Below are positions 824 through 45,610 of a stretch of DNA of 64,000 nucleotides, one piece after another; position 1 is the stretch's first letter, and each line of letters starts with the position of its first letter. The notes below the pieces were generated by a model. The model was not told the DNA's origin and made no database searches. It saw nothing but the letters and a program-made list of their open reading frames with translations. The DNA lies in contig QIGL01000052.1 of NCBI GenBank assembly GCA_003228915.1, positions 13,090 to 77,089 of the forward strand, given 5' to 3'. The position numbers and the translations under genes are program-made. Source of the stretch: Acidiferrobacteraceae bacterium. GTDB lineage: Bacteria > Pseudomonadota > Gammaproteobacteria > Acidiferrobacterales > SZUA-150.

Positions 824-1006
824 GATTTTAGTATTTCCATCGGTCTAGACACGGGACGCCGCATAATGGCATGGGTCAGGTGTTTAGGCCAAGGCATTAA
901 ACGGGCATTTTGCTGGTGTTTGAGCGTTGCGTTTACACTTTCAGCAACGTATATTTCACGCCCTTGCGAAATACCAGGCAAGGACATTAGTTTTTAGGCA
1001 AGTATT

Positions 1007-1083
1007 CGGGGTATAGCGCAGTCTGGTAGCGCGCCTGCTTTGGGAGCAGGATGTCGGGAGTTCGAATCTCTCTACCCCGACCA
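1007..1083 (+). tRNA. tRNA-Pro (anticodon TGG)
   Basis: Cloverleaf read by eye: acceptor cggggta/taccccg, anticodon loop TTTGGGA, T-loop gttcgaatc, encoded CCA. Confidence 0.9.
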
Positions 1084-1159
1084 TTTTCTTGAGATACTAC
1101 TCAGTTGATCATCAGGTTAAATGCCCGGATAAGACATTGCACTATTTTCAAGTAGTTTA

Positions 1160-1236
1160 GCGCCCGTAGCTCATTTGGATAGAGCATCGGCCTTCTAAGC
1201 CGAGGGTAGCAGGTTCGAATCCTGCCGGGCGCGCCA
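1160..1236 (+). tRNA. tRNA-Arg (anticodon TCT)
   Basis: Acceptor gcgcccg/cgggcgc, anticodon loop CTTCTAA, T-loop ttcgaat, CCA end. Confidence 0.9.
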
Positions 1237-1303
1237 TCTAACAGATTTTATTGTATGACTGTGGTATCTATATAAGGAAACAGTATAAACTGCATTGAAT
1301 TAT

Positions 1304-1380
1304 GGTGAGCGTAGCTCAGTTGGTAGAGCCCCGGATTGTGATTCCGGTCGTCGAGGGTTCAAGTCCCTTCGTTCACCCCA
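1304..1380 (+). tRNA. tRNA-His (anticodon GTG)
   Basis: Extra 5' G(-1) typical of bacterial tRNA-His, anticodon loop ATTGTGA, T-loop ttcaagt, CCA end. Confidence 0.9.
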
Positions 1381-1407
1381 TTTTACAGGTACCATCCATT
1401 TAGAAAT

Positions 1408-1483
1408 GGGCCGTTAGCTCAGTTGGTAGAGCAGCGGACTCTTAATCCGCGGGTCGTAGGTTCGATCCCTACACGGCCCACCA
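1408..1483 (+). tRNA. tRNA-Lys (anticodon CTT)
   Basis: Acceptor gggccgt/acggccc, anticodon loop CTCTTAA, T-loop ttcgatc, CCA end. Confidence 0.9.
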
Positions 1484-1495
1484 TTTCAGTTATCC

Positions 1496-1517
1496 ACCCC
1501 CGTATAGGGGGTTTTTA
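1496..1517 (+). terminator. Rho-independent terminator after the tRNA cluster
   Basis: Hairpin cccccGTATAggggg followed by a T-run. Two more gggtttttat modules follow within about 40 nt. Confidence 0.5.
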
Positions 1518-1605
1518 TTCTGGCGGGTTTTTATTTTGCCGGGTTTTTATATTTTTTCGCACGATAAATTAAAGCGCTTTGCGCTTGATGTTTATTGGTA
1601 CGCTT

Positions 1606-2355
1606 TTAAACGTCAACGTACACCCACTTTTCCTGAATCCGCTTAAGCACCTGCTCCAGTGCTGAGGGCACGACCTCGACCCCGGGCAATAATGTTACCT
1701 CAACGCCTTTGTCTTCTTTTAAGCGACGAATGGTTTTATTGCACGCCAGGAAAGTTAAGTTATCGTAGCGTGTCATCAGGTCCTTTATCCGTTGACCTGC
1801 CGGTGTAATGTCGGCCCGTAATATATTTAACGCGGAAGAATGCACAATTATTTCAAGATTTAATGTTCTGTTGTTTTGCTCATATTTTAATAAGAGCTGC
1901 TCGATATCATCCAGTGTTGCAATTAACTGGGCAGGATTTTTTTCAATGCGAAGAATCGCATTGGTTGCTTTATCATTGACGCTGGCATGGACAAACTCTT
2001 GCAGAGAATAAAAGCTCTTCAAATTATCGGACGTTGCCGGCTGTATAATTGCAGGGCTCTGCAATAACCAACCTGCGGACAAACCCACAACAATGAGCAA
2101 ACTGGCAGCGATGGCCAGGAACGACGCAGGTAAATTATACGCCCGGTTTATTCGTTTTACTATTGAGGTTTTTGTATCGGTATTTCGGTACGCCGAGCGA
2201 TACAAGCCGCGGATTTCGCGCATTACATTAATATCATCACGTAATCTGGCATTATGCAGCATAGCCTGTTCTATGCGATCAGCATGTTCCTCGGTCATTT
2301 CGCCATCAATGTAGGCGCAAATTTCTTCCCTGGTATATTTAGATCCTGTAGTCAT
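1606..2355 (-). CDS. Membrane-spanning anti-sigma factor candidate with a C-terminal DsrE-like periplasmic domain
   Basis: Lies directly downstream of the ECF sigma gene. Has a short N-terminal cytoplasmic segment, one TM helix (LPASFLAIAASLLIVVGLSAGWLL), and a C-terminal ~110 aa that aligns by eye with the DsrE-like proteins at 3208 and 40035. Confidence 0.7.
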   Translation of the reverse strand: MTTGSKYTREEICAYIDGEMTEEHADRIEQAMLHNARLRDDINVMREIRGLYRSAYRNTDTKTSIVKRINRAYNLPASFLAIAASLLIVVGLSAGWLLQSPAIIQPATSDNLKSFYSLQEFVHASVNDKATNAILRIEKNPAQLIATLDDIEQLLLKYEQNNRTLNLEIIVHSSALNILRADITPAGQRIKDLMTRYDNLTFLACNKTIRRLKEDKGVEVTLLPGVEVVPSALEQVLKRIQEKWVYVDV

Positions 2356-2425
2356 TGTTAGTCTTCTCCATAAAATAAACTATTTTCAGAATAAATTATC
2401 TTAAGCAAATTGTTACGTCGTCAGC

Positions 2426-2980
2426 CTATATAACCCGATGTAAAGTTACCGGTCGGGCTAATACCGCATGATTACAATAATCCCTTAATTGTTTTCTTAA
2501 CCCATCTCTTGCCCGTGCTAACCTGCTGGTGACGGTACCCAGTGGTATCCCCAGTGCTTCAGCTACCTGCGGATAGGTATAACCTGCCAAATCAACCAGT
2601 GATAATACTTCCCGTTGATTTCTTGGCAAACGGGCAACTGCTGCCCGCACACGCCTTACAATTTCTTCTTTCTCCTGACCGTCTTCCGGTGCAAGTTCTT
2701 CAAACTCGTCGAGAGTATCAAAATCGTCATGTTTTTTTCGACGACGCAAGTAGTCGCGCCAACAGTTGGTCAGGATATCTATAATCCAGCGTTCCATTGC
2801 GTAGTTTTCTCGCAGTTGCCCCAGGTTTTTGTAGGCACGAGTTAAGGCCTCCTGGGTCAAATCGTCGGCAAGTACTTTATCGCCACACCACGAGAACGCG
2901 ATACTGTGCAGTTTCCGGCGTCGTTCTCCGAGGTTTTGTCGATAAAGCCGTGTACGACAAAGCCAGTCTAAAGGATTCAT
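2426..2980 (-). CDS. ECF-type RNA polymerase sigma factor (sigma-70 family)
   Basis: 184 aa. Region 2 (DDLTQEALTRAYKNL) and region 4 HTH (YPQVAEALGIPLGTVTSRLARARDGL) are recognisable. GGAGG RBS upstream. Confidence 0.9.
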   Translation of the reverse strand: MNPLDWLCRTRLYRQNLGERRRKLHSIAFSWCGDKVLADDLTQEALTRAYKNLGQLRENYAMERWIIDILTNCWRDYLRRRKKHDDFDTLDEFEELAPEDGQEKEEIVRRVRAAVARLPRNQREVLSLVDLAGYTYPQVAEALGIPLGTVTSRLARARDGLRKQLRDYCNHAVLARPVTLHRVI

Positions 2981-3001
2981 ATTTTTCCTCCCAACCTACC
3001 C

Positions 3002-3028
3002 AGACGCACTAGCATCAGCAATCGTTCC
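3002..3028 (-). promoter_or_regulatory. Candidate ECF-type promoter for sigma autoregulation (GGAAC-N17-CGTCT)
   Basis: Minus strand reads GGAAC gattgctgatgctagtg CGTCT. It ends about 20 nt upstream of the sigma start codon. Confidence 0.5.
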
Positions 3029-3076
3029 AAATATTTTCATAGTATTTTACCCGGTCATTATTCTTGAAATAAACAT

Positions 3077-3103
3077 GGATCGATTGCGTGATCTGGTGCG
3101 TCA
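3077..3103 (+). promoter_or_regulatory. Candidate ECF-type promoter for the DsrE-like/porin unit (GGATC-N17-CGTCA)
   Basis: Plus strand reads GGATC gattgcgtgatctggtg CGTCA. Near-copy of the minus-strand element at 3002-3028, including the GATTGC start of the spacer. Confidence 0.5.
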
Positions 3104-3207
3104 TTGTACTCCAAGTCACGGGTATTACCTGCCGATAATTTTATAATAATTCTAAATTCGACGGGCGTTGACGATAAGTACTATTCAATCATAAACAGGA
3201 GGAAACA

Positions 3208-3654
3208 ATGTATCGATCACTAATGGGAACGTTTGTCACATTGATGATGGCAATTGCACTCAGCACGAGCCCGGCGCTGGCGACAGCGGGGATAAATAGT
3301 GCTGAGAAGAAAATCGTGCTGCAAATTAGCGATGGCAGCCCTAAAAAACAGACACTGGTTTTAAATGTCGCCAAAAATCTTATTAAACATTATGGCATTG
3401 ATAACGTGAAGGTTGAGATCGTGGCCTTTGGCCCCGGGTTACGCCTGTTATTCAAAGACAATGTTAATAGTATCCGTGTGCAAAGTCTTTCTACCTACGG
3501 CGTTCAGTTTTCTGCTTGTCAAAACACCACTCGTGCGATGACAAAAATCCTGGGGTATGAGCCAGAGCTTAATGAATCAGCGGTGCCAGTGAAAGCGGGT
3601 GTCGCGCGCATTATTGAGTTGACGGAAAAAGGCTACACACTGGTACGGCCATAA
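3208..3654 (+). CDS. Secreted DsrE/DsrF-like family protein (COG1416-like)
   Basis: AGGAGG RBS, signal peptide (MMAIALSTSPALATA). Motifs VEIVAFGPG, FSACQNT and GYTLVRP resemble the uncharacterised DsrE-like family. Confidence 0.75.
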   Translation: MYRSLMGTFVTLMMAIALSTSPALATAGINSAEKKIVLQISDGSPKKQTLVLNVAKNLIKHYGIDNVKVEIVAFGPGLRLLFKDNVNSIRVQSLSTYGVQFSACQNTTRAMTKILGYEPELNESAVPVKAGVARIIELTEKGYTLVRP

Positions 3655-3712
3655 ATTCGAACTAATTTTAATTATAAATAATTATAAAAATATTTTTCAG
3701 GAGAGACATTCA

Positions 3713-5179
3713 ATGTATGTAATAAAAAAAACAGCGTTAGCCCTGGCTTACGCGGTACTAATGGCAGGCGTGGTTGCGACTACGCAAGCGGCAAACTGGA
3801 CCATGCTGCAGGGGACTGAACCTGCAGGCACTGCGCCACGAATTAAGGTCTGGGGTTTCATTCAACCTGTCTACGAGAAAGACACCAGCAAAAAAAATAA
3901 ATATGTGGGCACACCTGGTAATAATTTCGAGATGGTTGCGCCCAAGCTTATTGGTCCGAATTTTGAAACACAAGAAGGCTTTAACATTCGACGGGCTCGT
4001 CTCGGTGCCAGAGGTGCCGGATTACCGCTGGACAGTAATGTAAATTATTTCTTTTTGGCAGAATTTGGTAATAACCTTTTAACGCACGACACTGGTGGAG
4101 TCGTTCGACTCACCGATGCCAGCATTACCCTAAACCATGTGCCAGGCGCGCGCGTACGCATGGGTGCGTTTAAGGTGCCTACCTTTGAAGAAGGTTACCA
4201 GGCCATTCATGTATTTGATTACATCAACTTCACTGAAGTGGCCCAACAAATGATGATGGAGCGCTTCCCGAATAAACAATGGACGCCTAACCGGAACAAT
4301 ACAACGGGTTTTGCCTATACAGACGGCGATAATGAAACGGCTTTCAACGGTTTTAATAAACCTGTCGGTGCTTTTCGTGACGTGGGTGTCCAGGTATTTG
4401 ATTCCTTCAAGTTTGGTAGCTGGGACACAACTTATGCCGCCATGTACGGCAATGGTAATGGTGTTAATTTAGGGGACAACGATAAAAATAAAGACGTCTA
4501 TCTTTACCTGTCAACCGAATGGATATTCGGCGGTAAAGGCCCGCGCCGCCAGGGCTGGAAGTTCTTTGTCTGGGGGCAGGATGGCAAGCGTACCTTGTAT
4601 AACCCGGATACCCCCAGGGCAGGTGGTCCTGGCACTGACAATGAGCCAGGTGGAAAACAGGAATACAGCCGTAAGCGTTATGGCATCGGTACTAAATTTA
4701 ACAACGGCCTGTTTCGTGTCACAACCGAATACTTGCAAGGTAAAGGCATGATTTTCCTGGGCCCGGATAACCCGACATTCACCATGACGGCACCGACTGG
4801 TGCCGGCGGTTGTGTTGCCGGCGACCCGAATAACGTATGCCCGTTATTAGCAGATGGCCGTAAAGGTGAATCGGCAGGTTATTATATCGACTTGGGCTGG
4901 TATATCCCGAGTACTGCGTGGGAGCTGGACGTGCGTTATGACTTCTATGATCGGTTGACCGATGCCGAGAAACTGGCAGGTCCTTGTGCTTTTAATTTTG
5001 AATTCAAGACCCTGACCGTTGGCACCAATTACCATTTAAAGAGCCGCATTACGGTAAACGCGGCAAAACGTGACTTTAAGTCCGTGGATTGTCCGGATGC
5101 GGGTCCTGGTGGCAATCCGAACAATAATCTGGAAGGCATCGATATGCGCTATAGCGTGCAGTTAACACATATTTTCTAA
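3713..5179 (+). CDS. Outer-membrane beta-barrel porin candidate
   Basis: Signal peptide ending TTQA/AN, alternating beta-strand-like sequence, C-terminal aromatic residue (LTHIF). Confidence 0.7.
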   Translation: MYVIKKTALALAYAVLMAGVVATTQAANWTMLQGTEPAGTAPRIKVWGFIQPVYEKDTSKKNKYVGTPGNNFEMVAPKLIGPNFETQEGFNIRRARLGARGAGLPLDSNVNYFFLAEFGNNLLTHDTGGVVRLTDASITLNHVPGARVRMGAFKVPTFEEGYQAIHVFDYINFTEVAQQMMMERFPNKQWTPNRNNTTGFAYTDGDNETAFNGFNKPVGAFRDVGVQVFDSFKFGSWDTTYAAMYGNGNGVNLGDNDKNKDVYLYLSTEWIFGGKGPRRQGWKFFVWGQDGKRTLYNPDTPRAGGPGTDNEPGGKQEYSRKRYGIGTKFNNGLFRVTTEYLQGKGMIFLGPDNPTFTMTAPTGAGGCVAGDPNNVCPLLADGRKGESAGYYIDLGWYIPSTAWELDVRYDFYDRLTDAEKLAGPCAFNFEFKTLTVGTNYHLKSRITVNAAKRDFKSVDCPDAGPGGNPNNNLEGIDMRYSVQLTHIF

Positions 5180-5197
5180 GGAAACTCAGATCAATAT

Positions 5198-5308
5198 ATG
5201 TTTGTCATTCCGATGTTTGTCATTCCGACCGAAGTGGAGGAATCTTGTAATTTCCTGATACTACTAAAGTTCCGTGGGTTGAGATCTCTCCACTGCGGTC
5301 GAGATGAC
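5198..5308. repeat. Small palindromic (REP/MITE-like) element
   Basis: 15-bp tandem atgtttgtcattccg x2 (5198-5227). Imperfect inverted repeat gtcattccgaccgaagtggaggaatct (5219-5245) versus agatctctccactgcggtcgagatgac (5282-5308). Confidence 0.6.
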
Positions 5309-5353
5309 AATTAATCAGAGCTTTCCTGGGTTTGTCTGCCCGGGCCATCTAAA

Positions 5354-5380
5354 ACCCGGTCATCTGGCCGGGTTTTTTTT
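5354..5380 (+). terminator. Rho-independent terminator of the porin unit
   Basis: Stem acccgg/ccgggt with an 8-nt loop, followed by T8. Confidence 0.7.
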
Positions 5381-5450
5381 GGGTTTATCGATATTGAATT
5401 AATGCGCGAGTTATTTTAGCCGCGCCGACCTTAGATTTTTTTCCATCGTG

Positions 5451-5537
5451 GCGCTGGCTGTGGGGAACTGGTAGACGCGCTGGATTTAGGTTCCAGTGGG
5501 GTAACCCGTGGGAGTTCGACTCTCCCCATTCGCACCA
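5451..5537 (+). tRNA. tRNA-Leu (anticodon TAG), type II with long variable arm; acceptor stem imperfect
   Basis: Anticodon arm ctgga-TTTAGGT-tccag, variable arm ggg-GTAA-ccc, T-arm gggag-ttcgact-ctccc, CCA end. The 5' acceptor gcgCTGg opposes cATTcgc, leaving 3 central mismatches. Confidence 0.7.
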
Positions 5538-5654
5538 GATGACATAATTGGCTGATTTATCTGTTGGTTGTTATGCTTGATTCAATTAAAATATTGAGAA
5601 AAGTAAATAAATACAATTAGATATCAGTATTTTAAATATAATTTATAGGGTTTA

Positions 5655-6968
5655 TTGATGCAAGTCTCAGTTGAAAACACAGGCGCAATTGGTCGCCGTA
5701 TGACGGTTTCTCTTTCTCCAGACGCCTTCGAAAAAGCGTTCACAGCGCGTCTCAAGCGCATGTCAAAGCAGGTGAAGCTGCCAGGCTTTCGCCCCGGCAA
5801 GGTGCCGTTGAAGGTTGTAGAGGCTCAATACGGCAGCCAGCTCATCCAGGAGGTCACTGGCGAGCTGATTCAGACCAGTTTCCAGGAGGCGATTGGCAAA
5901 GAAGGGCTGCGACCTGCAGGTGGACCAAAAATTGACCCTAAAAATATAGAGCGGGGCAAAGACCTGGAATACGTGGCCGAATTTGATATTTACCCGGAGG
6001 TCAACAAGCAGGATCTGAGCGGTGAAACACTGGAGATACCTGTCTGTGAGATTCAGGACGATGATATTAAAGAAACCCTCAAGACCATGCAAAAACAACG
6101 AATGTTATGGCAACCGGTAGAGCGGGAAGCCAAAAACGATGACCAGGTGACGATTGATTTTGATGGCAAAATAGACGGTAAGGCATTTGACGGTGGTCAG
6201 GCTAGCGCTGTCCCCCTGGTGCTGGGTTCAGGGGCAATGATCCCCGGATTTGAAGAAGGCCTGCTGAAAGTAAAGGCGGGCGAACAAAAAGATGTCACGC
6301 TTACCTTTCCCAAGGACTACCAGGCATCCCATTTGGCTGGCAAAAAAGCAGTATTCTCGGTCAAAGTGCAGCAAGTGGCAGAAGGCCAGTTGCCTGAGTT
6401 GTCAGAAGATTTTGCAAAACAGTTTGGTGTTGAAAGCGGTAGTTTGGACGAGTTACGCCAGGGGATTAAAGATAATCTAAACCGTGAGGCGACAGTTCGT
6501 ATCAGGAATATCACCCGTGACAGGGTGCTTGAGGCATTATTAGCCGCCAATGATTTTGAGTTGCCACAAGGGATGATTGTTGAAGAAATGCAGCAAATAC
6601 GAACCGGACGGGCGCGCCAAAGACAGGAACAAGGCATGCCTGAAGTGGCAGATGAAAATGAAGGTGAATTGAACGATGCGGCCAGGCGCCGTGTCACACT
6701 TGGCTTGATCATTGGTGAAATTATCAACCAGAAAAACTTAAAACCAGGATCTTCTAAAGTACGCCAGCGGGTTGAAGAGCTCGCCTCAGGGTACGAAAAT
6801 CCGCCCGCCCTGATTGCCTGGTATTACGAAAAACCGGAACGGTTGCGCGAGATAGAATCGCTGGTTCTGGAGGAAGCCGTGGTTGATGCGGTTTTGGCCA
6901 CTGCCACCGTCAAGAATAGCATCATAGCTTTTAAGGAACTGGTTGCAGTTAACGCCGGTAAAAGCTAG
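5655..6968 (+). CDS. tig: Trigger factor
   Basis: 437 aa. N-terminal ribosome-binding motif GFRPGKVP, central FKBP-like PPIase region. Position upstream of clpP-clpX-lon. Confidence 0.95.
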   Translation: MMQVSVENTGAIGRRMTVSLSPDAFEKAFTARLKRMSKQVKLPGFRPGKVPLKVVEAQYGSQLIQEVTGELIQTSFQEAIGKEGLRPAGGPKIDPKNIERGKDLEYVAEFDIYPEVNKQDLSGETLEIPVCEIQDDDIKETLKTMQKQRMLWQPVEREAKNDDQVTIDFDGKIDGKAFDGGQASAVPLVLGSGAMIPGFEEGLLKVKAGEQKDVTLTFPKDYQASHLAGKKAVFSVKVQQVAEGQLPELSEDFAKQFGVESGSLDELRQGIKDNLNREATVRIRNITRDRVLEALLAANDFELPQGMIVEEMQQIRTGRARQRQEQGMPEVADENEGELNDAARRRVTLGLIIGEIINQKNLKPGSSKVRQRVEELASGYENPPALIAWYYEKPERLREIESLVLEEAVVDAVLATATVKNSIIAFKELVAVNAGKS

Positions 6969-7000: not shown

Positions 7001-7648
7001 TTGAATCAACATATAAATAATGGTGCAGGCATGATGACCGATGATTTAGTGAAAGGACCACAAGCCCTTGGATTAGTGCCAATGGTGATTGAGACAACCG
7101 GCAAAGGCGAGCGGGCTTACGATATTTATTCTCGCATGCTCAAGGAGCGGGTTATTTTCCTGGTCGGGCCGGTCGAGGACTACATGTCTAATTTGATCGT
7201 GGCCCAGTTGTTGTTTCTTGAGTCCGAGAACCCGGATAAGGACATACATATCTATATCAACTCACCCGGCGGGGCCGTGACCGCGGGTTTGGCGATTTAT
7301 GACACTATGCAGTTCATAAAACCCGATGTCAGCACGGTTTGTATCGGCCAGGCCGCCAGTATGGGTGCGCTGTTGCTGGCCGGTGGCGCCAAAGGCAAGC
7401 GTTTCGCACTACCACACGCGCGTATGATGATTCACCAGCCCCTGGGGGGATTTCAGGGTCAGGCCACGGATGTTGATATTCATGCCCGGGAGATTCTGCG
7501 GGTTCGTGAGCGCCTGAACGAGATTCTGGCGGCCCATACAGAACAAAAACTTGAAAAAATTCAACAAGATACAGAACGTGATAACTTCCTGGAAGGGTCT
7601 GAGGCGGTGGAATTTGGCCTGATTGATAAAGTTATTGAAAAGCGTTAG
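7001..7648 (+). CDS. clpP: ATP-dependent Clp protease proteolytic subunit
   Basis: Motifs [14 protein letters not shown] and MIHQP. The true start is probably the ATG at 7031 (MMTDD...). Confidence 0.95.
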
Positions 7649-7797: not shown

Positions 7798-9096
7798 TTG
7801 ATGGCAGATGATCGAAATGACGGTGGCGATAATAAAAGCGAAAAGCTTTTATATTGCTCTTTTTGTGGCAAGAGTCAGCATGAAGTTCGGAAGCTGATCG
7901 CAGGCCCGTCTGTTTTTGTGTGTGATGAGTGCGTAGAACTCTGTAATGACATTATCCGCGAAGAAGTCGAAGAGGATGAAGAGTCTGCAGTTGGCAAGAG
8001 CCGCTTTCCCAAACCCCAGGAAATTTATCAAATTCTTGATGAGTACGTGATTGGCCAGTCAGACGCCAAAAAGGTGTTGTCGGTCGCTGTTTATAATCAC
8101 TACAAGCGTGTTGAGCATCAGGAGTCTGCTGCCGGTGATGTCGAGCTTTCCAAAAGTAATATCCTGCTTGTGGGTCCTACCGGTTCCGGCAAAACACTAT
8201 TGGCAGAAACGCTAGCGCGGTTGCTCAATGTCCCCTTTACCATTGCCGATGCCACGACACTGACCGAAGCCGGTTACGTGGGCGAAGATGTCGAAAATAT
8301 TATTCAGAAGCTGCTGCAAAAATGCGATTACGATGTCGATAAAGCACAGCGTGGCATTGTCTATATTGATGAGATCGATAAAATCTCGCGCAAATCAGAC
8401 AATCCTTCTATCACCCGGGATGTTTCGGGCGAGGGTGTCCAGCAGGCATTGCTGAAATTGATTGAAGGCACCATTGCCTCGGTACCGCCACAAGGTGGAC
8501 GCAAACACCCGCAACAGGAATTTCTGCAAGTAGACACGGGTGGAATTTTATTTATTTGCGGCGGCGCCTTTGCCGGCCTTGAGAAGGTAATCCAGGAGCG
8601 CTCCGAAAAAAGCAGTATTGGTTTTGGTGCCGATATTAAAACCAAATCTGAGAAAAAAAATATTGGTGAAATATTGCGTGGCGTCGAGCCAGAAGATCTA
8701 ATTAGATATGGCCTGATACCGGAATTTGTTGGCCGCTTGCCGGTGATGGCAGTACTGGAAGAATTAAGCGAAGAATCATTGGTTAGAATTCTTACTGAAC
8801 CAAAAAATGCCCTGGCAAAACAGTTCCAGAAACTGTTTCGCCTGGAAGGGGTTGAGCTTGAAATCCGTGAAGACGCGTTACGCGCGGTTTCCAAGCGTGC
8901 CATGGACAGGAAAACCGGTGCCCGTGGTTTGCGATCCATTGTTGAGCATGCCCTGCTGGATATCATGTTTGATTTACCCTCTACGGACAATGTCGAAAAA
9001 GTGGTTATTGAGGCCAATGTGATTACTGACGGCGCCAGCCCGCTACTGATCTATTCTGACAGCGACAAAAAAGAGAAACGCGCTTCCTCAAACTGA
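7798..9096 (+). CDS. clpX: ATP-dependent Clp protease ATP-binding subunit ClpX
   Basis: N-terminal zinc finger [26 protein letters not shown], Walker [12 protein letters not shown]-type loop SIGFGA. Confidence 0.97.
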
Positions 9097-27971: not shown

Positions 27972-28322
27972 GGAAGTAATTTCTTTGCTCGCACCTGTGT
28001 CATTAAAAAGCCCTGGGCTCATGATGGACGATATTTGCGAAAACATATAACAACAAAGGACATGGAAAAGCGTTAATAACTACATGATTTAACAGGGCAC
28101 GTGACGCTAAACAGTCGTTTATCGGGCAATTTTGTTGATTTATGCTACCATTGGTTTCAAGAAATCCCGGTCATTAATATATGTGGTATTTCTGTCGTAT
28201 CTGGGGAGGTATCGACAGAGCAGGGCGGCCTCGGATACATTAAATACTGTAAGGGGCAATTAGTTCAGTTATAACAAGTAACATATTGCTGGCGTAATTC
28301 TGGGTTCATAGTGGTTGTAGTT

Positions 28323-31300
28323 ATGGTGAAACAGAGTATTAGTAACTACAGGCCATTCCTCTCTTCCCTGATAGTTTCATTTTTCCTTCTAATTCTTGCC
28401 AGCTGTGGCGGTGGCGGCGGTTCTGGGGGCGGCGGTTCTGGTGGTGGTGATACAACTCCGCCCACTGTGTCATCGACAGTACCGACAATTAATGCAACTG
28501 GTGCTGGCCTAAGCAGCGCATTCGCTGCAACATTTTCCGAGGCCCTGAACCCGGCCACAATTTCAACCGCAAGCTTTTCGGTTGTTGTCACCAGTGGTGG
28601 GGCGCCGGTATCTGGCACGGTGTCATATAATGGTGTCACTGCGACATTTACACCGGACAGTGTTTTGCCAGGGAATACACAATTCACCGCAACCTTAACA
28701 GGCGGCGCCGGCAATATTACTGACCTGGCAGGTAATCCTCTGGCCGCAGACTATGTCTGGAGTTTTACCACCGGCATAGCTCCGGATGGTACGCCGCCCA
28801 CTGTGTCATCGACCGTGCCGACAGCGAATGCCACGGGCGTTTCTTTGAATAGCGCAGTCACTGCTACATTTTCCGAGGCCCTGAACCCGGCCACAATTTC
28901 AACCGCAACCTTTTCGGTTGTTGTCACCAGTGGTGGGGCACCGGTATCAGGCGCAGTGACCTACAATGGCGTCACTGCAACGTTTACACCAGGCAGTGCT
29001 TTGGCCGGGGATACGCAATTCACTGCAACCTTGACAGGCGGTACCGGTAATATTGCTGATTTGGCTGACAACGTGTTGGTCGCGGATTATGTCTGGAGTT
29101 TTACCACCGGCCCGGCGCCGGACAGTACGTCGCCAACAGTATCATCGACCGTGCCGACAGCGAATGCCACGGGCGTTTCTTTGAACAGTGCAGTCGCTGC
29201 AACATTTTCCGAGGCCTTGAACCCGGCAACCATTTCAACCGCAACCTTTTCGGTTGTTGTCACCAGTGGTGGGGCACCGGTATCAGGCGCAGTGACCTAC
29301 AATGGCGTGACTGCAACGTTTACCCCCAGCAGTGCCTTACCGGCGGACACACAACTCACTGCAACCTTAACCGGCGGTGCCGGCAATATTGCTGACCTGG
29401 CAGGCAATCCCCTGGCTGCGAGCTATACCTGGAGTTTTACTACCGGCCCGGCGCCGGACAGTACGTCGCCGACAGTATCATCGACAGTGCCGACAACGAA
29501 TGCCACGGGCGTTTCTTTAAACAGCGCAATCTCTGCAACATTTTCCGAGGCCCTGGATCCGGCAACCATTTCAACGGCAAGCTTTTCGGTTGTCGTGACC
29601 AGTGGTGGGGCACCGGTATCTGGCACGGTGACCTACAATGGCGTCACGGCAACGTTTACCCCCAGCAGCGCTTTACCGGGGAGTACACAATTTACTGCAA
29701 CCTTAACAGGCACTGCCGGCAATATTGCTGATTTGGCAGGTAATCCGTTGGCTACGGACTATGTCTGGAGTTTTACTGCAGGCGCGGTTCCGGACAGTAC
29801 GTCGCCGACAGTATCATCGACCGTGCCGACAACGAATGCCACGGGCGTTTCTTTAAACAGCGCAATCTCTGCAACATTTTCCGAGGCCCTGAACCCGGCC
29901 ACAATTTCAACGGCAACCTTTTCTGTTGTCGTGACCAGTGGTGGAGCACCGGTACCAGGCACAGTAACCTATAATGGTGTTACTGCAACGTTTACCCCCA
30001 GCAGCGCTTTACCGGGGAGTACACAATTTACTGCAACCTTAACAGGCACTGCCGGCAATATTACTGACCTGGCAGGCAACCCTTTGACAACAAACTATGT
30101 CTGGAGTTTTACTACCGTCCCGCCACCGGACATCACGCCCCCCGCAGTATCATCGACTGTGCCGACAACGAATGCCACAGGCGTTTCTTTGAACAGCACA
30201 GTCACTGCAACATTTTCCGAGGCCCTGGATCCGGCAACCATTTCAACCGCAAGCTTTACGGTTGTTGTCACCAGTGGCGGGGCAACGGTGTCTGGTACGG
30301 TGTCATATAATGGCGTCACTGCGACGTTTACACCGGACAGTGTTTTGCCAGGGAATACACAATTCACCGCAACCTTAGCTGGTGGTGTCGGCAATATTAC
30401 TGACCTGGCAGGCAACCCTCTCGCTGCGAGCTACGTCTGGAGTTTTACCACGCAGCCAGATTTAATTCTCCCTGATGTCATAAGCCCGCTCAGCCCGGTC
30501 AGCAACGCAACCAATGTAGCGACCAATACGAACGTCAGCGCCACATTCTCGGAACCGATTACGCCTGGATCAGTGGTTTTCCTGCTCAATGGTCCTGGTG
30601 GTGCCGTTTCTACTTCACCACCCGCGCTTACTGGCAACAATGATTTCGTAACAATCAATCCTGCTGCATCGCTTGAAAATAATACCACTTATGTTGCCAC
30701 CATCAGTGCTGCTAGAGATATTGCTGGCAATAATCTGGCGATGCCTTTTAGCTGGAGTTTTACCACAGTACCTGCACCGGATACCGCGCCACCCACTGTG
30801 TCATCGCATACGCCAATTGTTGGTGCAACCGGTGTGTCGATTAATTCGGCAATTAGTATTATTTTTTCGGAGTCAATGAATCTGTTGACGATTAACGAAA
30901 CTAACATCACGATTGATGGTGGTGTCAGCGCAAGCTCGGTAACCTATAGCGGGGTGACTGCTGTTTTTACGCCGTCTGTTAATTTGGCCAATAACACCAC
31001 TTACACGGTTACCGTAACAACGGGTGCAACAGATGTAGCTGGAAATCCTATAGCTGCAAACTATACATTCAGTTTTACAACTGCAGCAGCACCAGACACA
31101 ACACCACCGACCGTGTCATCGACAGTGCCGGCAACGAATGCCACAGGTATATCTTTAAACAGCGCAGTAACCGCGACATTTTCCGAGGCCTTGAATCCAG
31201 CAACAATTATTTTATCAACCTTTTCTGTTGTTGAGACCATTGGTGGAGCACCGGTATTAGGCGCAGTGACCTATAATGGCGTCACTGCAACGTTTACCCC

Positions 31301-33653
31301 AGACAGTGATTTAGCTGGAGATACGCAATTTACCGCGACCTTAACAGGCGGCGGTGGCAATATTGCTGACCTGGCAGGGAATGTGCTGGTAGGGGAGTAT
31401 GCATGGAGTTTTACCACCGGCCCTATTCCGGATACGACACCACCCACAGTTGAGTCGACTGTGCCTGCCGACACCGCCACGGTCATAGCGACCAACACCG
31501 CTATTACCGCGTTATTTTCTGAAGCTATTGATCCGGCAACCATCAACACCAGCAATTTTTCGGTATATGACAATACTAATTCATTATCGGTGAGTGGCAC
31601 GGTTACTTACAATGGTTTAACAGCGACCTTTACACCCAATACAGTTTTGGCCAATGACGCCTTACACACTGTGGCCTTATCCGGGGTAACAGACACCGCT
31701 GGTAATTCTTTGCCATTAACAAACTGGACGTTTACCACGGCAGCAGCGCCAGACATTACCAATCCTTCGGTAAATCTTCCTACTGTTCCCGCAGATACAG
31801 CGACAAATGTAGATATAACAACCGCAATCTCGGCCACATTTGATGAGCCCATGGATGCGGCAACATTAAGCACGGCAACCTTTACAGTTAATGACGACAC
31901 CAATATGTTAGCAGTTAGCGGCACTGTTACTTACGACGGTACCACGGCCACTTTTCAGCCGGATGCCGTCCTGGCTTTTTCTGCTGATATTACAGCCACT
32001 ATCAATGGCGCAACTGATCTTGCTGGCAATCCTTTACCACTTACCAACTGGACATTTACCATCAGCGCCGCACCCGATACCACTGGACCACAAATTACCA
32101 GCACCAGCCCGGTAAATTCGTCGACAGATATTAGTTTGCGGCCAACAATCACAGTCAAATTTTCCGAGCTTATTGATTGCGCGACCTTACTGGATTCTAG
32201 CTTGAGTTTAACGGGTGGGGCAGTGGTGACTTTTACGGCAAGTTGTGGCGCTGATACTGCCACATTTATCCCCACTTCGGACCTCACCGTGAATACAACT
32301 TATACGGCAACTTTAAATGGCAGCATTACGGATATTGCCGCTAATGTACTGGTAGCTGGTTCGATACCAAACCCGTGGACGTTTACGACAGCACCAGAAT
32401 TGTGGACCGTCCAGTTTGGCAGCGATTCTCATGACCAGGTCCGTGGCGTAGTGACCGATACTGCCGGCAATGTTTATATTACAGGATCAACACTTGGCAA
32501 CATGGATGACCAGGTAAATGCCGGGGGCAATGACATTTTCCTGACCAAGTATTCGCCGGCTGGGGAACGTCTCTGGACCAGGTTTGCGGGCACCAATAGA
32601 ACAGATGTGGCCAATGCGCTTGCGGTTGATAGCGCGGATAATATTTATATTGCCGGCTATTCGAGAGGAGATCTTAATGGTGAAACAAATAACAATTTCA
32701 CAAAAGATGTTGCGGTTATTAAATATGATGCCACTGGTGCACGACTCTGGACCCGTCTGCTCGGCACCGGTTCTGATGATTTTGCATCAGCTATTACCAT
32801 AGATGGATCAGACAATATCTATGTGACCGGCACCACGTTTGGTGATTTTGATGGTGCGAGCTCTATGAGAAATGGTAGTGAATTCTTTTTGTTAAAACTT
32901 GCTAGCAGTGGTGCTGAGCAATGGCGGACACAGTTAGGGAGCAGCAATGACATTGTGGCGCGTGGCATCACCACAATTGGTACCAATGTTTATGTCGTGG
33001 GCCACACTAATGGCGGTTTGGCCGAACCGGTAGCCAGGACCAACTCTGGGGCAACTGATATATTTTTAGCCCGTTTCTCGACTGCTATTGGCACGCTAGA
33101 TTTATCACAGCTTTACGGGAATTCAGCTGATAATTTGGGTCACGGGATTGTTGCCTTTGGTACAGATTTGTATATTACCGGCAACACCAAGGGCGGACTA
33201 AAGGGCCTCGGTGGAGTTAACGTGCCTAGTATTGGTCTCATTGATGCATTTTTGATGCAAACTGACACGGCTGGTGTTGTCCAATGGACCAGGATCATTG
33301 GCACATCAGCAGATGATTTAGGGAGGGGTGTTACTGTTGATTCCAGCGGCGGTATTTATATCACCGGTTATACCGTGGGCAGCTTTACTGGCGCGGCCAA
33401 TGCTGGCAGTAATGATTTGTTTGTCACCAAGTATGATACTTCCGGCGCAACTGCATGGGCTACTCCGGTCGTCCGACAACTCGGCAGCGCCGCAGACGAT
33501 ACCGCCCGCGCTATTACCACCTATTCGACTGCGGGCGTGACCGATGTATTTGTTGTCGGCGAGACCCTGGGCGCACTGGATGGTAATGTGTCATTCGGCT
33601 TGAGTGATTTTTTTGCGGTGAAATATGATGGTGCTACGGGAACCAAGAATTAA
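28323..33653 (+). CDS. Giant surface lipoprotein: 12 SbsA/Big_5-like Ig modules plus C-terminal SBBP beta-propeller repeats
   Basis: Lipobox LILASCGGGGGSGG. 12 modules each start D-x-T/S-P-P-T-V-S-S-T-V-P and contain ATFSEAL(N/D)PATIS. The C-terminal third has D-x-x-GN-(I/V)-Y-I-T-G ... ND-(I/L)-F-L-x-K-Y repeats. The ORF is open from 28311 (GTG). Confidence 0.85.
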   Translation: MVKQSISNYRPFLSSLIVSFFLLILASCGGGGGSGGGGSGGGDTTPPTVSSTVPTINATGAGLSSAFAATFSEALNPATISTASFSVVVTSGGAPVSGTVSYNGVTATFTPDSVLPGNTQFTATLTGGAGNITDLAGNPLAADYVWSFTTGIAPDGTPPTVSSTVPTANATGVSLNSAVTATFSEALNPATISTATFSVVVTSGGAPVSGAVTYNGVTATFTPGSALAGDTQFTATLTGGTGNIADLADNVLVADYVWSFTTGPAPDSTSPTVSSTVPTANATGVSLNSAVAATFSEALNPATISTATFSVVVTSGGAPVSGAVTYNGVTATFTPSSALPADTQLTATLTGGAGNIADLAGNPLAASYTWSFTTGPAPDSTSPTVSSTVPTTNATGVSLNSAISATFSEALDPATISTASFSVVVTSGGAPVSGTVTYNGVTATFTPSSALPGSTQFTATLTGTAGNIADLAGNPLATDYVWSFTAGAVPDSTSPTVSSTVPTTNATGVSLNSAISATFSEALNPATISTATFSVVVTSGGAPVPGTVTYNGVTATFTPSSALPGSTQFTATLTGTAGNITDLAGNPLTTNYVWSFTTVPPPDITPPAVSSTVPTTNATGVSLNSTVTATFSEALDPATISTASFTVVVTSGGATVSGTVSYNGVTATFTPDSVLPGNTQFTATLAGGVGNITDLAGNPLAASYVWSFTTQPDLILPDVISPLSPVSNATNVATNTNVSATFSEPITPGSVVFLLNGPGGAVSTSPPALTGNNDFVTINPAASLENNTTYVATISAARDIAGNNLAMPFSWSFTTVPAPDTAPPTVSSHTPIVGATGVSINSAISIIFSESMNLLTINETNITIDGGVSASSVTYSGVTAVFTPSVNLANNTTYTVTVTTGATDVAGNPIAANYTFSFTTAAAPDTTPPTVSSTVPATNATGISLNSAVTATFSEALNPATIILSTFSVVETIGGAPVLGAVTYNGVTATFTPDSDLAGDTQFTATLTGGGGNIADLAGNVLVGEYAWSFTTGPIPDTTPPTVESTVPADTATVIATNTAITALFSEAIDPATINTSNFSVYDNTNSLSVSGTVTYNGLTATFTPNTVLANDALHTVALSGVTDTAGNSLPLTNWTFTTAAAPDITNPSVNLPTVPADTATNVDITTAISATFDEPMDAATLSTATFTVNDDTNMLAVSGTVTYDGTTATFQPDAVLAFSADITATINGATDLAGNPLPLTNWTFTISAAPDTTGPQITSTSPVNSSTDISLRPTITVKFSELIDCATLLDSSLSLTGGAVVTFTASCGADTATFIPTSDLTVNTTYTATLNGSITDIAANVLVAGSIPNPWTFTTAPELWTVQFGSDSHDQVRGVVTDTAGNVYITGSTLGNMDDQVNAGGNDIFLTKYSPAGERLWTRFAGTNRTDVANALAVDSADNIYIAGYSRGDLNGETNNNFTKDVAVIKYDATGARLWTRLLGTGSDDFASAITIDGSDNIYVTGTTFGDFDGASSMRNGSEFFLLKLASSGAEQWRTQLGSSNDIVARGITTIGTNVYVVGHTNGGLAEPVARTNSGATDIFLARFSTAIGTLDLSQLYGNSADNLGHGIVAFGTDLYITGNTKGGLKGLGGVNVPSIGLIDAFLMQTDTAGVVQWTRIIGTSADDLGRGVTVDSSGGIYITGYTVGSFTGAANAGSNDLFVTKYDTSGATAWATPVVRQLGSAADDTARAITTYSTAGVTDVFVVGETLGALDGNVSFGLSDFFAVKYDGATGTKN
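28449..32395 (+). repeat. Intragenic tandem repeat array (~336-bp period, about 12 units; units 2-6 nearly identical at DNA level)
   Basis: The same peptide blocks recur every ~112 aa. Antisense shadow ORFs in the track recur at a 336-nt offset (29423..29626 and 29759..29962). Confidence 0.85.
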
Positions 33654-40034: not shown

Positions 40035-40475
40035 ATGAGTAAATTAATAAGAAATTCAAGCCTGATTGTACTAATGTCGTTATTTGTTTTTGGGAATTTA
40101 AGCGCGTTTGCTGGTGCGAAATTGCCGCATAAAGTAGTAATCCAGGTTAGTACTGATGATCCAAGAACCCAAAAAATAGCATTGAATAATGCCGTCAACC
40201 TGCAGAAGCTTTATGGTATTGATAATATTAAGATTGAAATTGTTGCCTATGGTCCAGGACTTGGGTTGTTGACAACAAAGAGCAAGCAGGCCGATAGAGT
40301 GAAAAGCCTGGCAGTGCAGGAGATAACCTTTAGCGCATGCCATAATACTATGAAAGGTGTTAAACGCAAAACAGGTAAAATGCCCGTCCTGCTTGAAGGT
40401 GTCGGAATGGTCACAGCAGGTGTTGCCCGTATTATAGAATTGCAAGAACAAGGGTACGCCTACGTCCGACCATAA
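40035..40475 (+). CDS. Secreted DsrE/DsrF-like family protein (paralog of 3208..3654)
   Basis: GGAGG RBS, signal peptide (FVFGNLSAFA). IEIVAYGPG, FSACHNT and GYAYVRP align along the full length with the 3208 protein. Confidence 0.75.
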   Translation: MSKLIRNSSLIVLMSLFVFGNLSAFAGAKLPHKVVIQVSTDDPRTQKIALNNAVNLQKLYGIDNIKIEIVAYGPGLGLLTTKSKQADRVKSLAVQEITFSACHNTMKGVKRKTGKMPVLLEGVGMVTAGVARIIELQEQGYAYVRP

Positions 40476-40499
40476 AATTTAAGAAACCTAGCTGAATAT

Positions 40500-40537
40500 G
40501 GATAGATCGTGGTTCGTTTCGCTCTCACGATCTATCC
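40500..40537 (+). terminator. 12-bp perfect stem hairpin downstream of the DsrE-like gene (weak T tail)
   Basis: Stem ggatagatcgtg, 14-nt loop, stem cacgatctatcc, followed by aggttt. Confidence 0.45.
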
Positions 40538-40683
40538 AGGTTTAGGTAAGCCCGTTAATGGTAGCGGGCGCTATATGTAAAGATATCGACGAAGTTCTCC
40601 GCACCAATAGACAGTCAACCGAAGAGATAAGCAGGCATATAAACGAACTTCGGTGCCAATTCAAGAAACCTACACCTTAGTGC

Positions 40684-40712
40684 TTGACATGTGTCTAACA
40701 CACACTTTCTAT
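40684..40712 (+). promoter_or_regulatory. Sigma-70 promoter with embedded TGTGT-N3-ACACA box (copy 2), upstream of the YVTN gene
   Basis: TTGACA TGTGTCTAACACACACT TTCTAT, 17-nt spacer. About 295 nt upstream of ATG 41008. Confidence 0.5.
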
Positions 40713-41007
40713 CTTTGAAAACACAGGAAACCAGCTGAAACAGACAATACTAGTATAGTGGTTTGTTCGCGGTGATAAGTGCTTTGCAGTTGCCACCGTA
40801 ACCGGGGTTTTTACATATATAAATTGGATATACCAAAAAATCCTCTGGAAAACTACTGGTTGTGGTTGTTGTAATAACAGTAACGAATATTAGTAATGGA
40901 TGATCCTGATCAGAGCGTGTAGCAACGATGTCATATGCGAAGCTGGATTCTGCCTGTAAATAACTCATTCGCTCGTTCATAGTTTCGATAACAACGGAGA
41001 TGAAGTA

Positions 41008-42135
41008 ATGAATAAAAATTTAATTTTGTTTTTCAGTATTATCATGGCGGGAACATTTTTTGCCGGCTCCCTCCCGGCTGTGGCAGGGAAAAAATCAGAT
41101 GAAGCAACGATTCTTTATATCACTAACGAAGGAAGTAACACGCTCTCGATAATAGATGGAGAAAAATATAAAGTTATCACAACAATACCGGTGGGCAAAA
41201 CCCCCCACCATCCATGGCTAGTGCCGGGAGGCAAGTATGTGTTTACCGATAACAGGGGGGAGAATACCTTGTCGGTAGTTGATGTAAAAGCCGGCAAAAC
41301 AATTAAAACCATCACCGTAGGTAACGCCCCCACTCATATAGTGTTTACGCCAGATGGAAAATATGCCTATGTGGCCAATACCAAAGATAAAACTACCTCG
41401 GTAATCGATCTTGCTGAACTCGAGGTCGCTGCCACTATTACAACCGGTGGCGGCTCACACGATCCTGCCATCACCCCGGATGGCAAGTTTGTCTATGTCA
41501 CTGCCAGGAAACCTGGCCATGTGGCAGTGATCGACACGTCCACGAATAAGGTCATTAAGAAAATATCCACGGGTGGAAAAGCGAATGGCGTGCGTATGAC
41601 AAAGGATGGCAAGTTTGTCTGGGTGGGTAATACCAAGGCCGGAACCGTATCCGTTATCGATACCGCGAAAAATAAGGTGGTCGCCACAATCAAGTCCGGT
41701 GCCGGAACCCATAACATCCGTTTTTCACCAGACGGTAAATATGCCTACGTCGGCAATATGAAAGATGGCAACCACGCAGTGATCAACACGGCCACATATA
41801 AGGTCGTTACACGAATACCGACTGGCAAAGGTGCAAACATCGCCTATTTCCATCCAAACGGTAAATACATCTATTTCTCCATTAACAAAGCCAATGAGAT
41901 CCCGGTAGTAGATGCTAAAACCAACAAGATAATTACGAAGATTCCAATCGGTGAAGGTGGTACGCACAACCTGGCCTTTGTGGATGGTGGCAAGTTCCTC
42001 TACGCCACCAGTTGGTTCGGTGAATATATCCTTGTGATTGATACCAGGAAAAATAAAGTTATCAAAGAGATACCGGCGATGTTCTCCAACGGCATAAAAG
42101 TAAAAGGCGCAACACCAGCGACCGGCAGGGGATGA
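41008..42135 (+). CDS. YVTN-family beta-propeller repeat protein, secreted
   Basis: Signal peptide (FFAGSLPAVAG). About 8 repeats of ~40 aa of the form Y-V-x-N-x-x-x-x-T-(L/V)-S-V-I-D...I-x-V-G-x-x-P-x-x-(I/V)-x-x-(T/S)-P-D-G-K. Confidence 0.85.
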   Translation: MNKNLILFFSIIMAGTFFAGSLPAVAGKKSDEATILYITNEGSNTLSIIDGEKYKVITTIPVGKTPHHPWLVPGGKYVFTDNRGENTLSVVDVKAGKTIKTITVGNAPTHIVFTPDGKYAYVANTKDKTTSVIDLAELEVAATITTGGGSHDPAITPDGKFVYVTARKPGHVAVIDTSTNKVIKKISTGGKANGVRMTKDGKFVWVGNTKAGTVSVIDTAKNKVVATIKSGAGTHNIRFSPDGKYAYVGNMKDGNHAVINTATYKVVTRIPTGKGANIAYFHPNGKYIYFSINKANEIPVVDAKTNKIITKIPIGEGGTHNLAFVDGGKFLYATSWFGEYILVIDTRKNKVIKEIPAMFSNGIKVKGATPATGRG

Positions 42136-42143
42136 ATGATACG

Positions 42144-42171
42144 GGAGCAGCCGTTTAACAGCGGCTGCTCC
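42144..42171 (+). terminator. 10-bp stem hairpin after the YVTN gene (no T tail)
   Basis: Stem ggagcagccg, loop TTTAACAG, stem cggctgctcc. Confidence 0.35.
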
Positions 42172-42297
42172 ACCCAATTGGTTATTTGGTTAAGCTAGAC
42201 AGACGAAGGCAGCGTTTAATTTATTGCCGATTTTGATGTCTCACATGGAGTTATAAATCACAGAAAAAAAGTGTTAACATATTCCAACAAACCCGGC

Positions 42298-42416
42298 CGT
42301 GCCCTGTTCGGGGGTAACTGTCGTGCCCTGTTCGGGGGTAACTGTCGTGCCCTGTTCGGGGGTAACTGTGGGCGCCACCTGGCAAGGACTATCGGCGCCA
42401 CCTGACAAGGAATATT
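42298..42416 (+). repeat. Two back-to-back tandem repeat arrays immediately upstream of the exporter start codon
   Basis: cgtgccctgttcgggggtaactgt x3, perfect, 24 bp (42298..42369). Then ggcgccacctggcaaggactatc / ggcgccacctgacaaggaatatt, 23 bp x2 (42371..42416). The ATG is at 42420. Confidence 0.9.
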
Positions 42417-42419
42417 GTT

Positions 42420-44771: not shown

Positions 44772-44796
44772 TCAAATCATAAGGAGGGTGCCAGTT

Positions 44797-45600: not shown

Positions 45601-45610
45601 TATTTAATCT

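Follow-up and report, generated by a model that had tools for sequence, protein, structure and literature searches.

We analyzed a stretch of 64,000 nucleotides (nt) of an Acidiferrobacteraceae bacterium (contig QIGL01000052.1, positions 13,090 to 77,089 of the forward strand), hereafter called the window, in which four genes are organized around a sigma factor of the extracytoplasmic function (ECF) type and a putative membrane-bound anti-sigma factor carrying a DsrE-like domain in the periplasm. All coordinates are those of the window unless a locus is named. On the minus strand, the gene of the sigma factor (2426..2980) is followed, after a gap of 70 nt, by the open reading frame (ORF) of a 249 amino acid (aa) protein (1606..2355), which we read as a single-pass anti-sigma factor from the ORF itself, its AlphaFold2 (AF2) model, and the conservation of its family. 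Divergently, on the plus strand, the gene of a secreted DsrE-like protein of 148 aa (3208..3654) is separated by 58 nt from that of an outer-membrane beta-barrel porin of 488 aa, of the OprO/OprP (Porin_O_P) kind according to AF2 and Foldseek (3713..5179). This second operon ends in a hairpin that resembles an intrinsic terminator (5351..5376, plus strand), with an 11-bp stem including 6 GC pairs and followed by a run of T. A second secreted DsrE-like paralog, of 146 aa, is encoded at 40035..40475 on the plus strand. The five ORFs lie exactly where a first-pass annotation, made by a model from the letters alone, had placed them.

The sigma factor is a canonical ECF sigma factor. It matches the Pfam families Sigma70_r2 (E 1e-11) and Sigma70_r4_2 (E 2e-15), as well as the NCBIfam model sigma70-ECF (TIGR02937; E 6e-28, 97.5 bits for a cut-off of 42.9). 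The protein has only the sigma-2 and sigma-4 domains in 184 aa, which places it in the ECF group (group 4). Its nearest relatives of solved structure are SigE of Mycobacterium tuberculosis, SigW, AlgU, and RpoE.

The 249-aa protein was modeled with AF2 on 64 homologues. The model has three N-terminal helices within residues 9-57, with a predicted local distance difference test (pLDDT) score of 80-90, a transmembrane helix at residues 78-94, a disordered linker at residues 95-125, and a confident alpha/beta domain at residues 130-248 (pLDDT about 90). The transmembrane segment (residues ~77-98; 2062..2127, minus strand) contains the hydrophobic stretch PASFLAIAASLLIVVGLSAGWLL and is flanked by Lys and Arg residues on its N-terminal, cytoplasmic side. 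This bears out the topology that the first-pass annotation had read from the sequence, i.e., a short cytoplasmic N-terminus, one transmembrane helix, and a periplasmic C-terminal part.

The first of these parts (residues 1-57; 2185..2355, minus strand) resembles known anti-sigma domains in its three-helix model and in faint family matches. In a Pfam scan of 144 members of the family, zf-HC2 was matched in 38 and RseA_N in 6, and the profile of the family weakly matched the sigma-binding N-termini of MucA (E 0.025) and RseA (E 0.038). In the alignment of the same 144 proteins, residue D17 is invariant, and the surrounding N-terminal motif L-N-A-F-x-D-G-E-L is kept as strongly as the periplasmic domain. 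The zinc/redox motif HxxxCxxC of the zinc-binding anti-sigma (ZAS) factors is absent from the domain and the family does not belong to them: position 13 is a Cys in 7 of the 144 members and 34 have no cytoplasmic Cys at all. These signals are weak but consistent and, together with the very strong genomic coupling to the sigma gene (see below), they suggest a class-I anti-sigma domain.

The periplasmic domain (residues 126-249; 1609..1980, minus strand) could be placed with more precision. When compared with the PDB, the profile of the 144 members matched MTH1491 (1L1S) with an E-value of 4.9e-20 and ST0148 (2PD2) with 2.2e-11. The model has the three-layer alpha/beta architecture of the DsrE-type fold in AF2 and Foldseek, and the latter returned only three significant PDB matches, all of one family: 1L1S (E 5.9e-8, template modeling (TM) score 0.88, root mean square deviation 1.8 Å), 2PD2 (TM score 0.82), and 8UJA. 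The last is a designed tetrahedral cage in which a DsrE-like protein is the building block, which implies that the closest solved relative oligomerizes. MTH1491 is itself a trimer. Pfam DsrE was matched in 48 of the 144 fused members at E<=0.01. By profile and fold, the assignment to the COG1416/MTH1491 branch of the DsrE-like proteins is solid. Hence, the DsrE fold suggested in the first-pass annotation stands for this branch, while the canonical DsrE and TusD that it had named as characterized relatives were not among the top matches.

The same annotation had aligned the domain by eye with both secreted proteins of the window. Residues 165-247 of the 249-aa protein match the copy at 40035 in BLASTP (E 1e-8, 27% identity), and a direct BLASTP of the anti-sigma factor against the adjacent 148-aa paralog gave no match. 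Identity between fused and free domains is only about 22-27%. When the profile of the fused family was aligned with that of the free paralogs by hhalign, the probability was 99.6% (E 4.6e-24) over 121 columns, far above chance, and the alignment reproduced all three blocks that had been picked by eye. It also brought the Cys residues into register, in agreement with the earlier remark that a single Cys is retained in the fused domain and in both free copies.

This residue is Cys205 of the 249-aa protein (codon checked at 1741..1743, minus strand). It closes strand beta-3, immediately ahead of the following helix, and is the sole periplasmic Cys of the protein. It is invariant in the 144 members, every one of which has exactly one Cys past the transmembrane helix, and it is one of four invariant positions of the alignment (D17 in the anti-sigma domain; C205, W244, and Y246 in the periplasmic one). 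It aligns with the Cys of the 'fCACsnT' motif of MTH1491 and with that of ST0148. A lone invariant Cys in the periplasm cannot form a structural intramolecular disulfide, which points to thiol chemistry. The characterized relatives DsrE and TusD have a single reactive Cys that carries a persulfide or a thiosulfonate.

The free paralogs keep this Cys. The 148-aa protein starts with a signal peptide ending in ...ALATA and has a single Cys, Cys104 (codon checked at 3517..3519, plus strand); residues C104, N106, and T107 are invariant in the nine free paralogs that were aligned. It matches Pfam DsrE below the gathering score of 22.7 bits (18.1 bits, E 0.0032), whereas the paralog at 40035 passes it (26.8 bits, E 6.2e-6). 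The two free copies are 45% identical (BLASTP E 1e-37). We considered the copy at 40035 as a further member of the regulon and rejected it for want of an upstream promoter motif, none being found there in the pattern scan of the 64 kb. It is probably a homologue outside of the module.

The AF2 model of the porin is an all-beta barrel (predicted TM score 0.81). Its top Foldseek matches are OprP (2O4V, E 1.7e-13) and OprO (4RJX), followed by general porins, with TM scores of only 0.5-0.6. The porin of the window had no Pfam match at E<=1. Among its 1934 homologues, many of those at 50-86% identity carry PF07396 or PF13609. There is also a weak match to the NCBIfam model ExtI (E 9.6e-4, 18 bits for a cut-off of 150). 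The protein is thus predicted to be an OprP/OprO-like channel of the anion type.

How widespread is this set of genes? A word-indexed search gave only 9 relatives of the anti-sigma factor, as if the family were rare, and this view was overturned by an exhaustive profile search covering 1.84 billion representatives. The latter produced 1455 matches at E<=1e-3 and 232 at E<1e-30; the best 150 of these 232 are nearly all ~235-255 aa long and match end to end. The full architecture is present in at least ~145 clusters at 50% identity. A genome scan with a narrow alignment gave 5 loci, and the closest species-representative genome is an uncultured Acidiferrobacteraceae metagenome-assembled genome, at 68% identity. 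The loci that we inspected (L numbers in the following) carry homologues from 98% down to ~25% identity and represent about 12 separate lineages. In their source annotations these proteins are called "DsrE family protein" or "intracellular sulfur oxidation DsrE/DsrF family protein"; the word "intracellular" is wrong on the compartment and neither name conveys the putative regulatory role.

In every locus inspected, down to an anti-sigma identity of ~25-36%, an ECF sigma gene is immediately upstream of the anti-sigma gene. The two genes overlap by 4 nt or abut in L006, L009-L012, and L018-L020, and the overlap of 4 nt is also found in the P0009 locus, whose protein is 36% identical. The free DsrE-like gene is divergent from the sigma gene in the clade of the window, in L009 (Sulfuritortus calidifontis), L011, L012, L014 (Acidiferrobacterales), L016 (Chromatiales), L018, and L020. 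It is downstream, within the sigma operon, in L010, and in L019 the DsrE-like/porin pair (L019:1-1912) is ~2 kb away from the sigma gene, behind an operon with Thioredoxin_7 and Sulf_transp genes. The next gene after the DsrE-like one encodes a Porin_O_P protein in the clade of the window, L009, L012, L014, L016, L018, L019, and L020. In other words, the sigma gene is upstream in all loci, the free DsrE-like gene is adjacent in most, and the porin is there in many; this is the adjacency on which the first-pass annotation had made its proposal depend. The flanks are tig-clpP-clpX-lon in the clade of the window, pirin and LysR genes in L007, and different again in the others, which implies that the four genes behave as one unit. 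The neighboring tig-clpP-clpX-lon genes, which we considered as part of the system, were rejected because L007 and all the distant loci have other flanks.

Some loci show variants of this organization. In L010 (7319-8719), sigma, anti-sigma, and DsrE-like genes form one operon, and a gene for a mechanosensitive channel of the MscS type stands where the porin would be. The free paralog of L011 (4809-5243, minus strand) has a lipobox-like signal (LTGC), and its sequence suggests that it may be a lipoprotein instead of a soluble periplasmic protein. The DsrE-like reading frame of L019 looks split in tblastn, with two segments. In L017 (4706-5162), the anti-sigma family was matched over its last 54 residues alone, overlapping the end of a sigma-like match, and this copy of the module may have been degraded or rearranged.

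We then scanned both strands of the window for the ECF-type promoter pattern GGAWY-N17-CGTC. There are two matches in the 64 kb, for 1.2 expected, and both fall in the intergenic region of 227 bp, arranged back to back with each directed at one operon. The motif on the sigma side (GGAAC-N17-CGTC; 3003..3028, minus strand) ends 23 nt ahead of the ATG of the sigma gene, from which autoregulation is predicted. The motif on the other side (GGATC-N17-CGTC; 3077..3102, plus strand) is 106 nt ahead of the ATG of the DsrE-like gene. Matching motifs toward both operons support the earlier suggestion that the free paralog and the 488-aa barrel are the likely regulon. Among the loci, 13 of 14 have the motif upstream of sigma and 12 of 14 have the back-to-back pair (the window, L001, L003, L007, L009, L011, L012, L015, L016, L018, L019, and L020). 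L010, where the DsrE-like gene sits in the sigma operon, has the sigma-side motif alone. The displaced DsrE-like/porin pair of L019 is preceded by its own copy (L019:2002-2026, minus strand). In L018, a third copy (GGAATAAATCATGTCGGCGCCGCGTC; L018:7725-7750, minus strand) lies ~88 nt upstream of soxY (7184-7636), and this position suggests that in this lineage the sigma factor may also control Sox carrier genes. In L015, besides the promoter pair upstream of sigma (4268-4363), there is an extra copy 3' of the anti-sigma gene (6369-6394); no DsrE-like gene or other convincing ORF was identified as a target of the motifs in this high-GC sequence. An Rfam scan of positions 900-5800 of the window revealed no regulatory RNA in the 5' untranslated regions.

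The hosts that could be named belong to lineages of sulfur oxidizers, i.e., Acidiferrobacteraceae, Chromatiales, and Sulfuritortus. In L012, L018, and L019, a Thioredoxin_7 gene and a YeeE/YedE-like Sulf_transp gene come next in the divergent operon; in the same three loci a gene for a periplasmic binding protein (SBP_bac_11) comes after the anti-sigma gene, and soxYZ(A, B) adjoin. L018 also carries TusA and DrsE_2 genes. L012 has a third free DsrE-like gene (8303-8749, minus strand), directly 3' of soxB in a soxYZA-soxB cluster, which gives the secreted proteins of the COG1416 type a tie to the Sox pathway of the periplasm that does not depend on the sigma module. Neighborhood and hosts thus support, without proof, a sulfur-related input and output.

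The explanation that we favor is that the four genes form an ECF signaling module with a sulfur-responsive mechanism based on Cys205, and we give this explanation, taken as a whole, somewhat better than an even chance. It builds on what the sequence analysis shows: the architecture of the genes, the two domain assignments, the conserved module, the invariant single Cys, the paired promoters, and the Sox/YeeE/TusA neighborhood. Its parts that we infer are the binding of sigma, the identity of the signal, the modification of the Cys, and the proteolytic release. At rest, the cytoplasmic three-helix domain of the anti-sigma factor would sequester the co-transcribed ECF sigma factor. Reactive sulfur in the periplasm (polysulfide, sulfane sulfur, or compounds derived from thiosulfate/tetrathionate) would turn Cys205 into a persulfide or a thiosulfonate, either by direct reaction or with the free paralog as the donor. 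The modified domain would change its conformation or oligomeric state, and the anti-sigma factor would then be inactivated, most likely by regulated proteolysis through the disordered linker. The freed sigma factor would transcribe its own operon from GGAAC-N17-CGTC and the divergent one from GGATC-N17-CGTC. The induced single-Cys carrier and the OprO/P-like, presumably anion-selective porin would raise the uptake and handling of anionic sulfur compounds in the envelope. The sensing of sulfur through Cys205, considered on its own, is plausible and about evenly balanced.

A number of observations weigh against this explanation. The 249-aa protein itself remains below the gathering scores of both zf-HC2 (E 0.0017, 18.8 bits for 22.2) and DsrE (E 0.048, 14.3 bits for 22.7), and these low scores leave its architecture unannotated in the databases. 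The sequestration of sigma by the N-terminus is a prediction. Neither the canonical DsrE nor TusD was among the top matches of Foldseek or of the profile, which makes sulfur-carrier chemistry, and the equivalence of Cys205 with Cys78 of DsrE/TusD, an extrapolation across PF02635. The nearest structural relatives, MTH1491 and ST0148, whose structures date from 2002 and 2007, were never assigned a function. As for the loci, the porin is missing from L010 and L011, the adjacent DsrE-like gene went undetected in L015 (the sole such locus, despite its promoter pair), and the strict promoter pattern is absent from L014. The promoter motif is a short consensus, with a background of ~1 match per 20 kb in these loci, and the link to soxYZ is confined to one clade.

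Within the sulfur-responsive explanation, a more specific and rather doubtful version is a relay from Cys to Cys, in which sulfane sulfur or thiosulfonate would pass from the secreted carrier, or from intermediates bound to SoxYZ, to the domain of the anti-sigma factor. If it were true, the loading of the pool of sulfur carriers would directly set the transcription of the porin, of the carrier and, in some lineages, of soxYZ and the YeeE-like gene. This would be a persulfide analogue of the phosphorelay, and a first function for the orphan family MTH1491/COG1416.

Among the rival explanations, the one that survives best, while still unlikely, is that the DsrE-like domain is mainly a surface of oligomerization onto which the induced free paralog docks, the latter being either the true sensor or a negative feedback like RseB or CpxP. 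Proteins with the DsrE fold form trimers or hetero-hexamers, and the oligomeric state of the closest solved relative (8UJA) goes in the same direction. In most lineages the free paralog is conserved along with the module, next to it and under the same promoter motif, and both proteins have exactly one Cys, at the equivalent position. These two residues may join through a mixed disulfide or a polysulfide bridge, in which case docking overlaps with the explanation that we favor. However, no paralog was detected adjacent to the module of L015, and a shared oligomer interface is not assured because the fused and free domains have diverged so much.

Somewhat less likely again is that Cys205 reports oxidants (HOCl, peroxide) or soft metalloids (selenite, tellurite, arsenite) instead of sulfur substrates, as part of an envelope stress or detoxification response like that of SigF-NrsF. 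A lone periplasmic Cys is intrinsically sensitive to oxidants, a Thioredoxin_7 gene is found in the target operon of L012, L018, and L019, and the porin has its weak match to ExtI, which is the porin encoded in an operon for selenite/tellurite reduction. Yet that match is far under the cut-off, and the other neighbors (soxYZAB, the YeeE-like transporter, TusA, and DrsE_2), the motif copy ahead of soxY in L018, and the affiliation of the hosts all indicate sulfur oxidation. Finally, the absence of any signaling pair, with the 249-aa protein a membrane-anchored DsrE-like enzyme or carrier and sigma controlled otherwise, would fit the weakness of every single N-terminal match to anti-sigma families and the database names, which give DsrE only, and is the least likely of all, indeed very improbable, given that the two genes are contiguous and often overlap by 4 nt in every lineage inspected, that the N-terminal motif with its invariant D17 is as conserved as the periplasmic domain, that zf-HC2 and RseA_N are matched in 38 and 6 of the 144 members, and that the conserved module holds no other candidate anti-sigma factor.

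The rest of the window has a few further features. Four tRNA genes (Pro-TGG, Arg-TCT, His-GTG, and Lys-CTT; 1007-1483, plus strand) are clustered beyond the end of the anti-sigma gene, in convergent orientation to it, with terminator-like hairpins at 1496-1543. Between the porin terminator and tig, a tRNA-like match at 5454-5534 (plus strand) is below threshold (Rfam tRNA, 25 bits for a gathering score of 29); ARAGORN called no tRNA at this position, and the stretch may be the remnant of one. A protein of 1780 aa (28311-33653, plus strand) has 12 Big_5 Ig-like domains, SBBP beta-propeller repeats, and a CopC-like segment, and is probably a giant surface or adhesin protein. Downstream of the second DsrE-like paralog, the stretch 40035-46879 encodes a secreted seven-bladed beta-propeller of the YVTN/cytochrome-D1-like kind (41008-42135), an MMPL/RND-type transporter (42420-44771), a LolA-like protein (44734-45600), and a 422-aa protein with no Pfam match. 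At ~42260-42350, a spurious minus-strand ORF ends in three copies of QLPPNRAR, a sign that the DNA holds a short tandem repeat, which either closely precedes the start of the MMPL gene or overlaps it.

Pairs of ECF sigma and anti-sigma factors form a major class of bacterial signaling systems, few of which have a known input, and this family offers a precise candidate mechanism, based on a single invariant Cys of the periplasm within a sulfur-carrier fold. Since the promoter is predicted and the regulon compact, the circuit can be tested directly. If confirmed, it would show how uncultured marine sulfur oxidizers (Acidiferrobacteraceae, Chromatiales, and Thiobacillus-like Betaproteobacteria) regulate the entry of sulfur compounds through the outer membrane and their handling in the periplasm, a process that is poorly understood, and it would open the COG1416/MTH1491 proteins to functional study. 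Sigma factor, anti-sigma factor, and promoter also make up an orthogonal set, a possible part for biosensors of reactive sulfur. Our searches of the literature, which covered the main text of the ECF re-classification paper, turned up no published case of a DsrE-like domain in an anti-sigma factor, in line with the first-pass annotation, for which the architecture was undescribed. Sulfur and DsrE are not mentioned in the main text of that paper, and the sigma group may already have a number in the ECF classification.

The system can be compared with several that are known. It shares with the ZAS factors RsrA and RslA, and with NrsF, the partner of SigF, the proposal that Cys chemistry on the anti-sigma factor is the trigger. 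The ZAS factors, however, have a cytoplasmic zinc/disulfide switch based on the HxxxCxxC motif that is absent here. NrsF, a polytopic protein of the DUF1109 family, senses chromate or reactive chlorine through Cys residues in the periplasm, and neither ZAS nor NrsF has the DsrE fold or a single lone Cys. In a paper on chlorine redox, NrsF is named an anti-sigma factor sensing reactive chlorine species (PMC9751292), and we found no link to DsrE there. FecI/FecR also combines an ECF sigma factor and a single-pass anti-sigma factor, genetically coupled to a channel for substrates in the outer membrane. In that system, the partner is a TonB-dependent transducer, whereas here it is a diffusion porin of the OprO/P-like kind, for which the role of a target, not of the signal input, is predicted, and the FecR domain is lacking.

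The closest precedent for a sulfur-related input is given by RpoE1 and RpoE4 of Sinorhizobium meliloti (ECF26), two sulfite-responsive ECF sigma factors with anti-sigma factors of the COG5662 type, which target the sulfite dehydrogenase SorT (PMC3511301). As is predicted for the pair described here, they are tied to the oxidation of inorganic sulfur, are autoregulated, and have small regulons with periplasmic sulfur enzymes (PMC3511301). They differ in the anti-sigma factor, of COG5662 instead of DsrE-like, and in their hosts, which are alphaproteobacterial heterotrophs. For the periplasmic domain itself, MTH1491 and ST0148 (COG1416, PF02635) have the same fold, clear sequence homology, and the Cys of the A-C-x-x-T motif, but they are free, cytoplasmic, archaeal proteins of ~110 aa, whereas the domain is here periplasmic and fused to an anti-sigma factor, or secreted. 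DsrEFH, TusBCD, and DsrE3A share the Pfam superfamily, for which the paralog at 40035 passes the DsrE gathering score, but they are cytoplasmic and non-regulatory, and they were not recovered as direct structural or profile matches.

The strongest resemblance is to RseA and MucA, the anti-sigma factors of sigmaE in Escherichia coli and of AlgU in Pseudomonas aeruginosa. These have, as is predicted for the 249-aa protein, a helical N-terminal anti-sigma domain, one transmembrane helix, and a C-terminal domain in the periplasm, and their genes are downstream of, and co-transcribed with, an autoregulated ECF sigma gene under a promoter of the GGAAC...CGTC type. AlgU and RpoE are moreover among the closest solved relatives of the sigma factor of the window. 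The C-terminus of RseA and MucA, however, is largely unstructured and binds RseB, whereas here it is a folded DsrE-like domain whose Cys is invariant; rseB and rseC genes are absent, and the predicted target operon encodes a paralog of the putative sensor domain and a porin. Judged by its genes and their sequences, the system appears to be RseA/MucA-like ECF signaling with a new periplasmic input domain.

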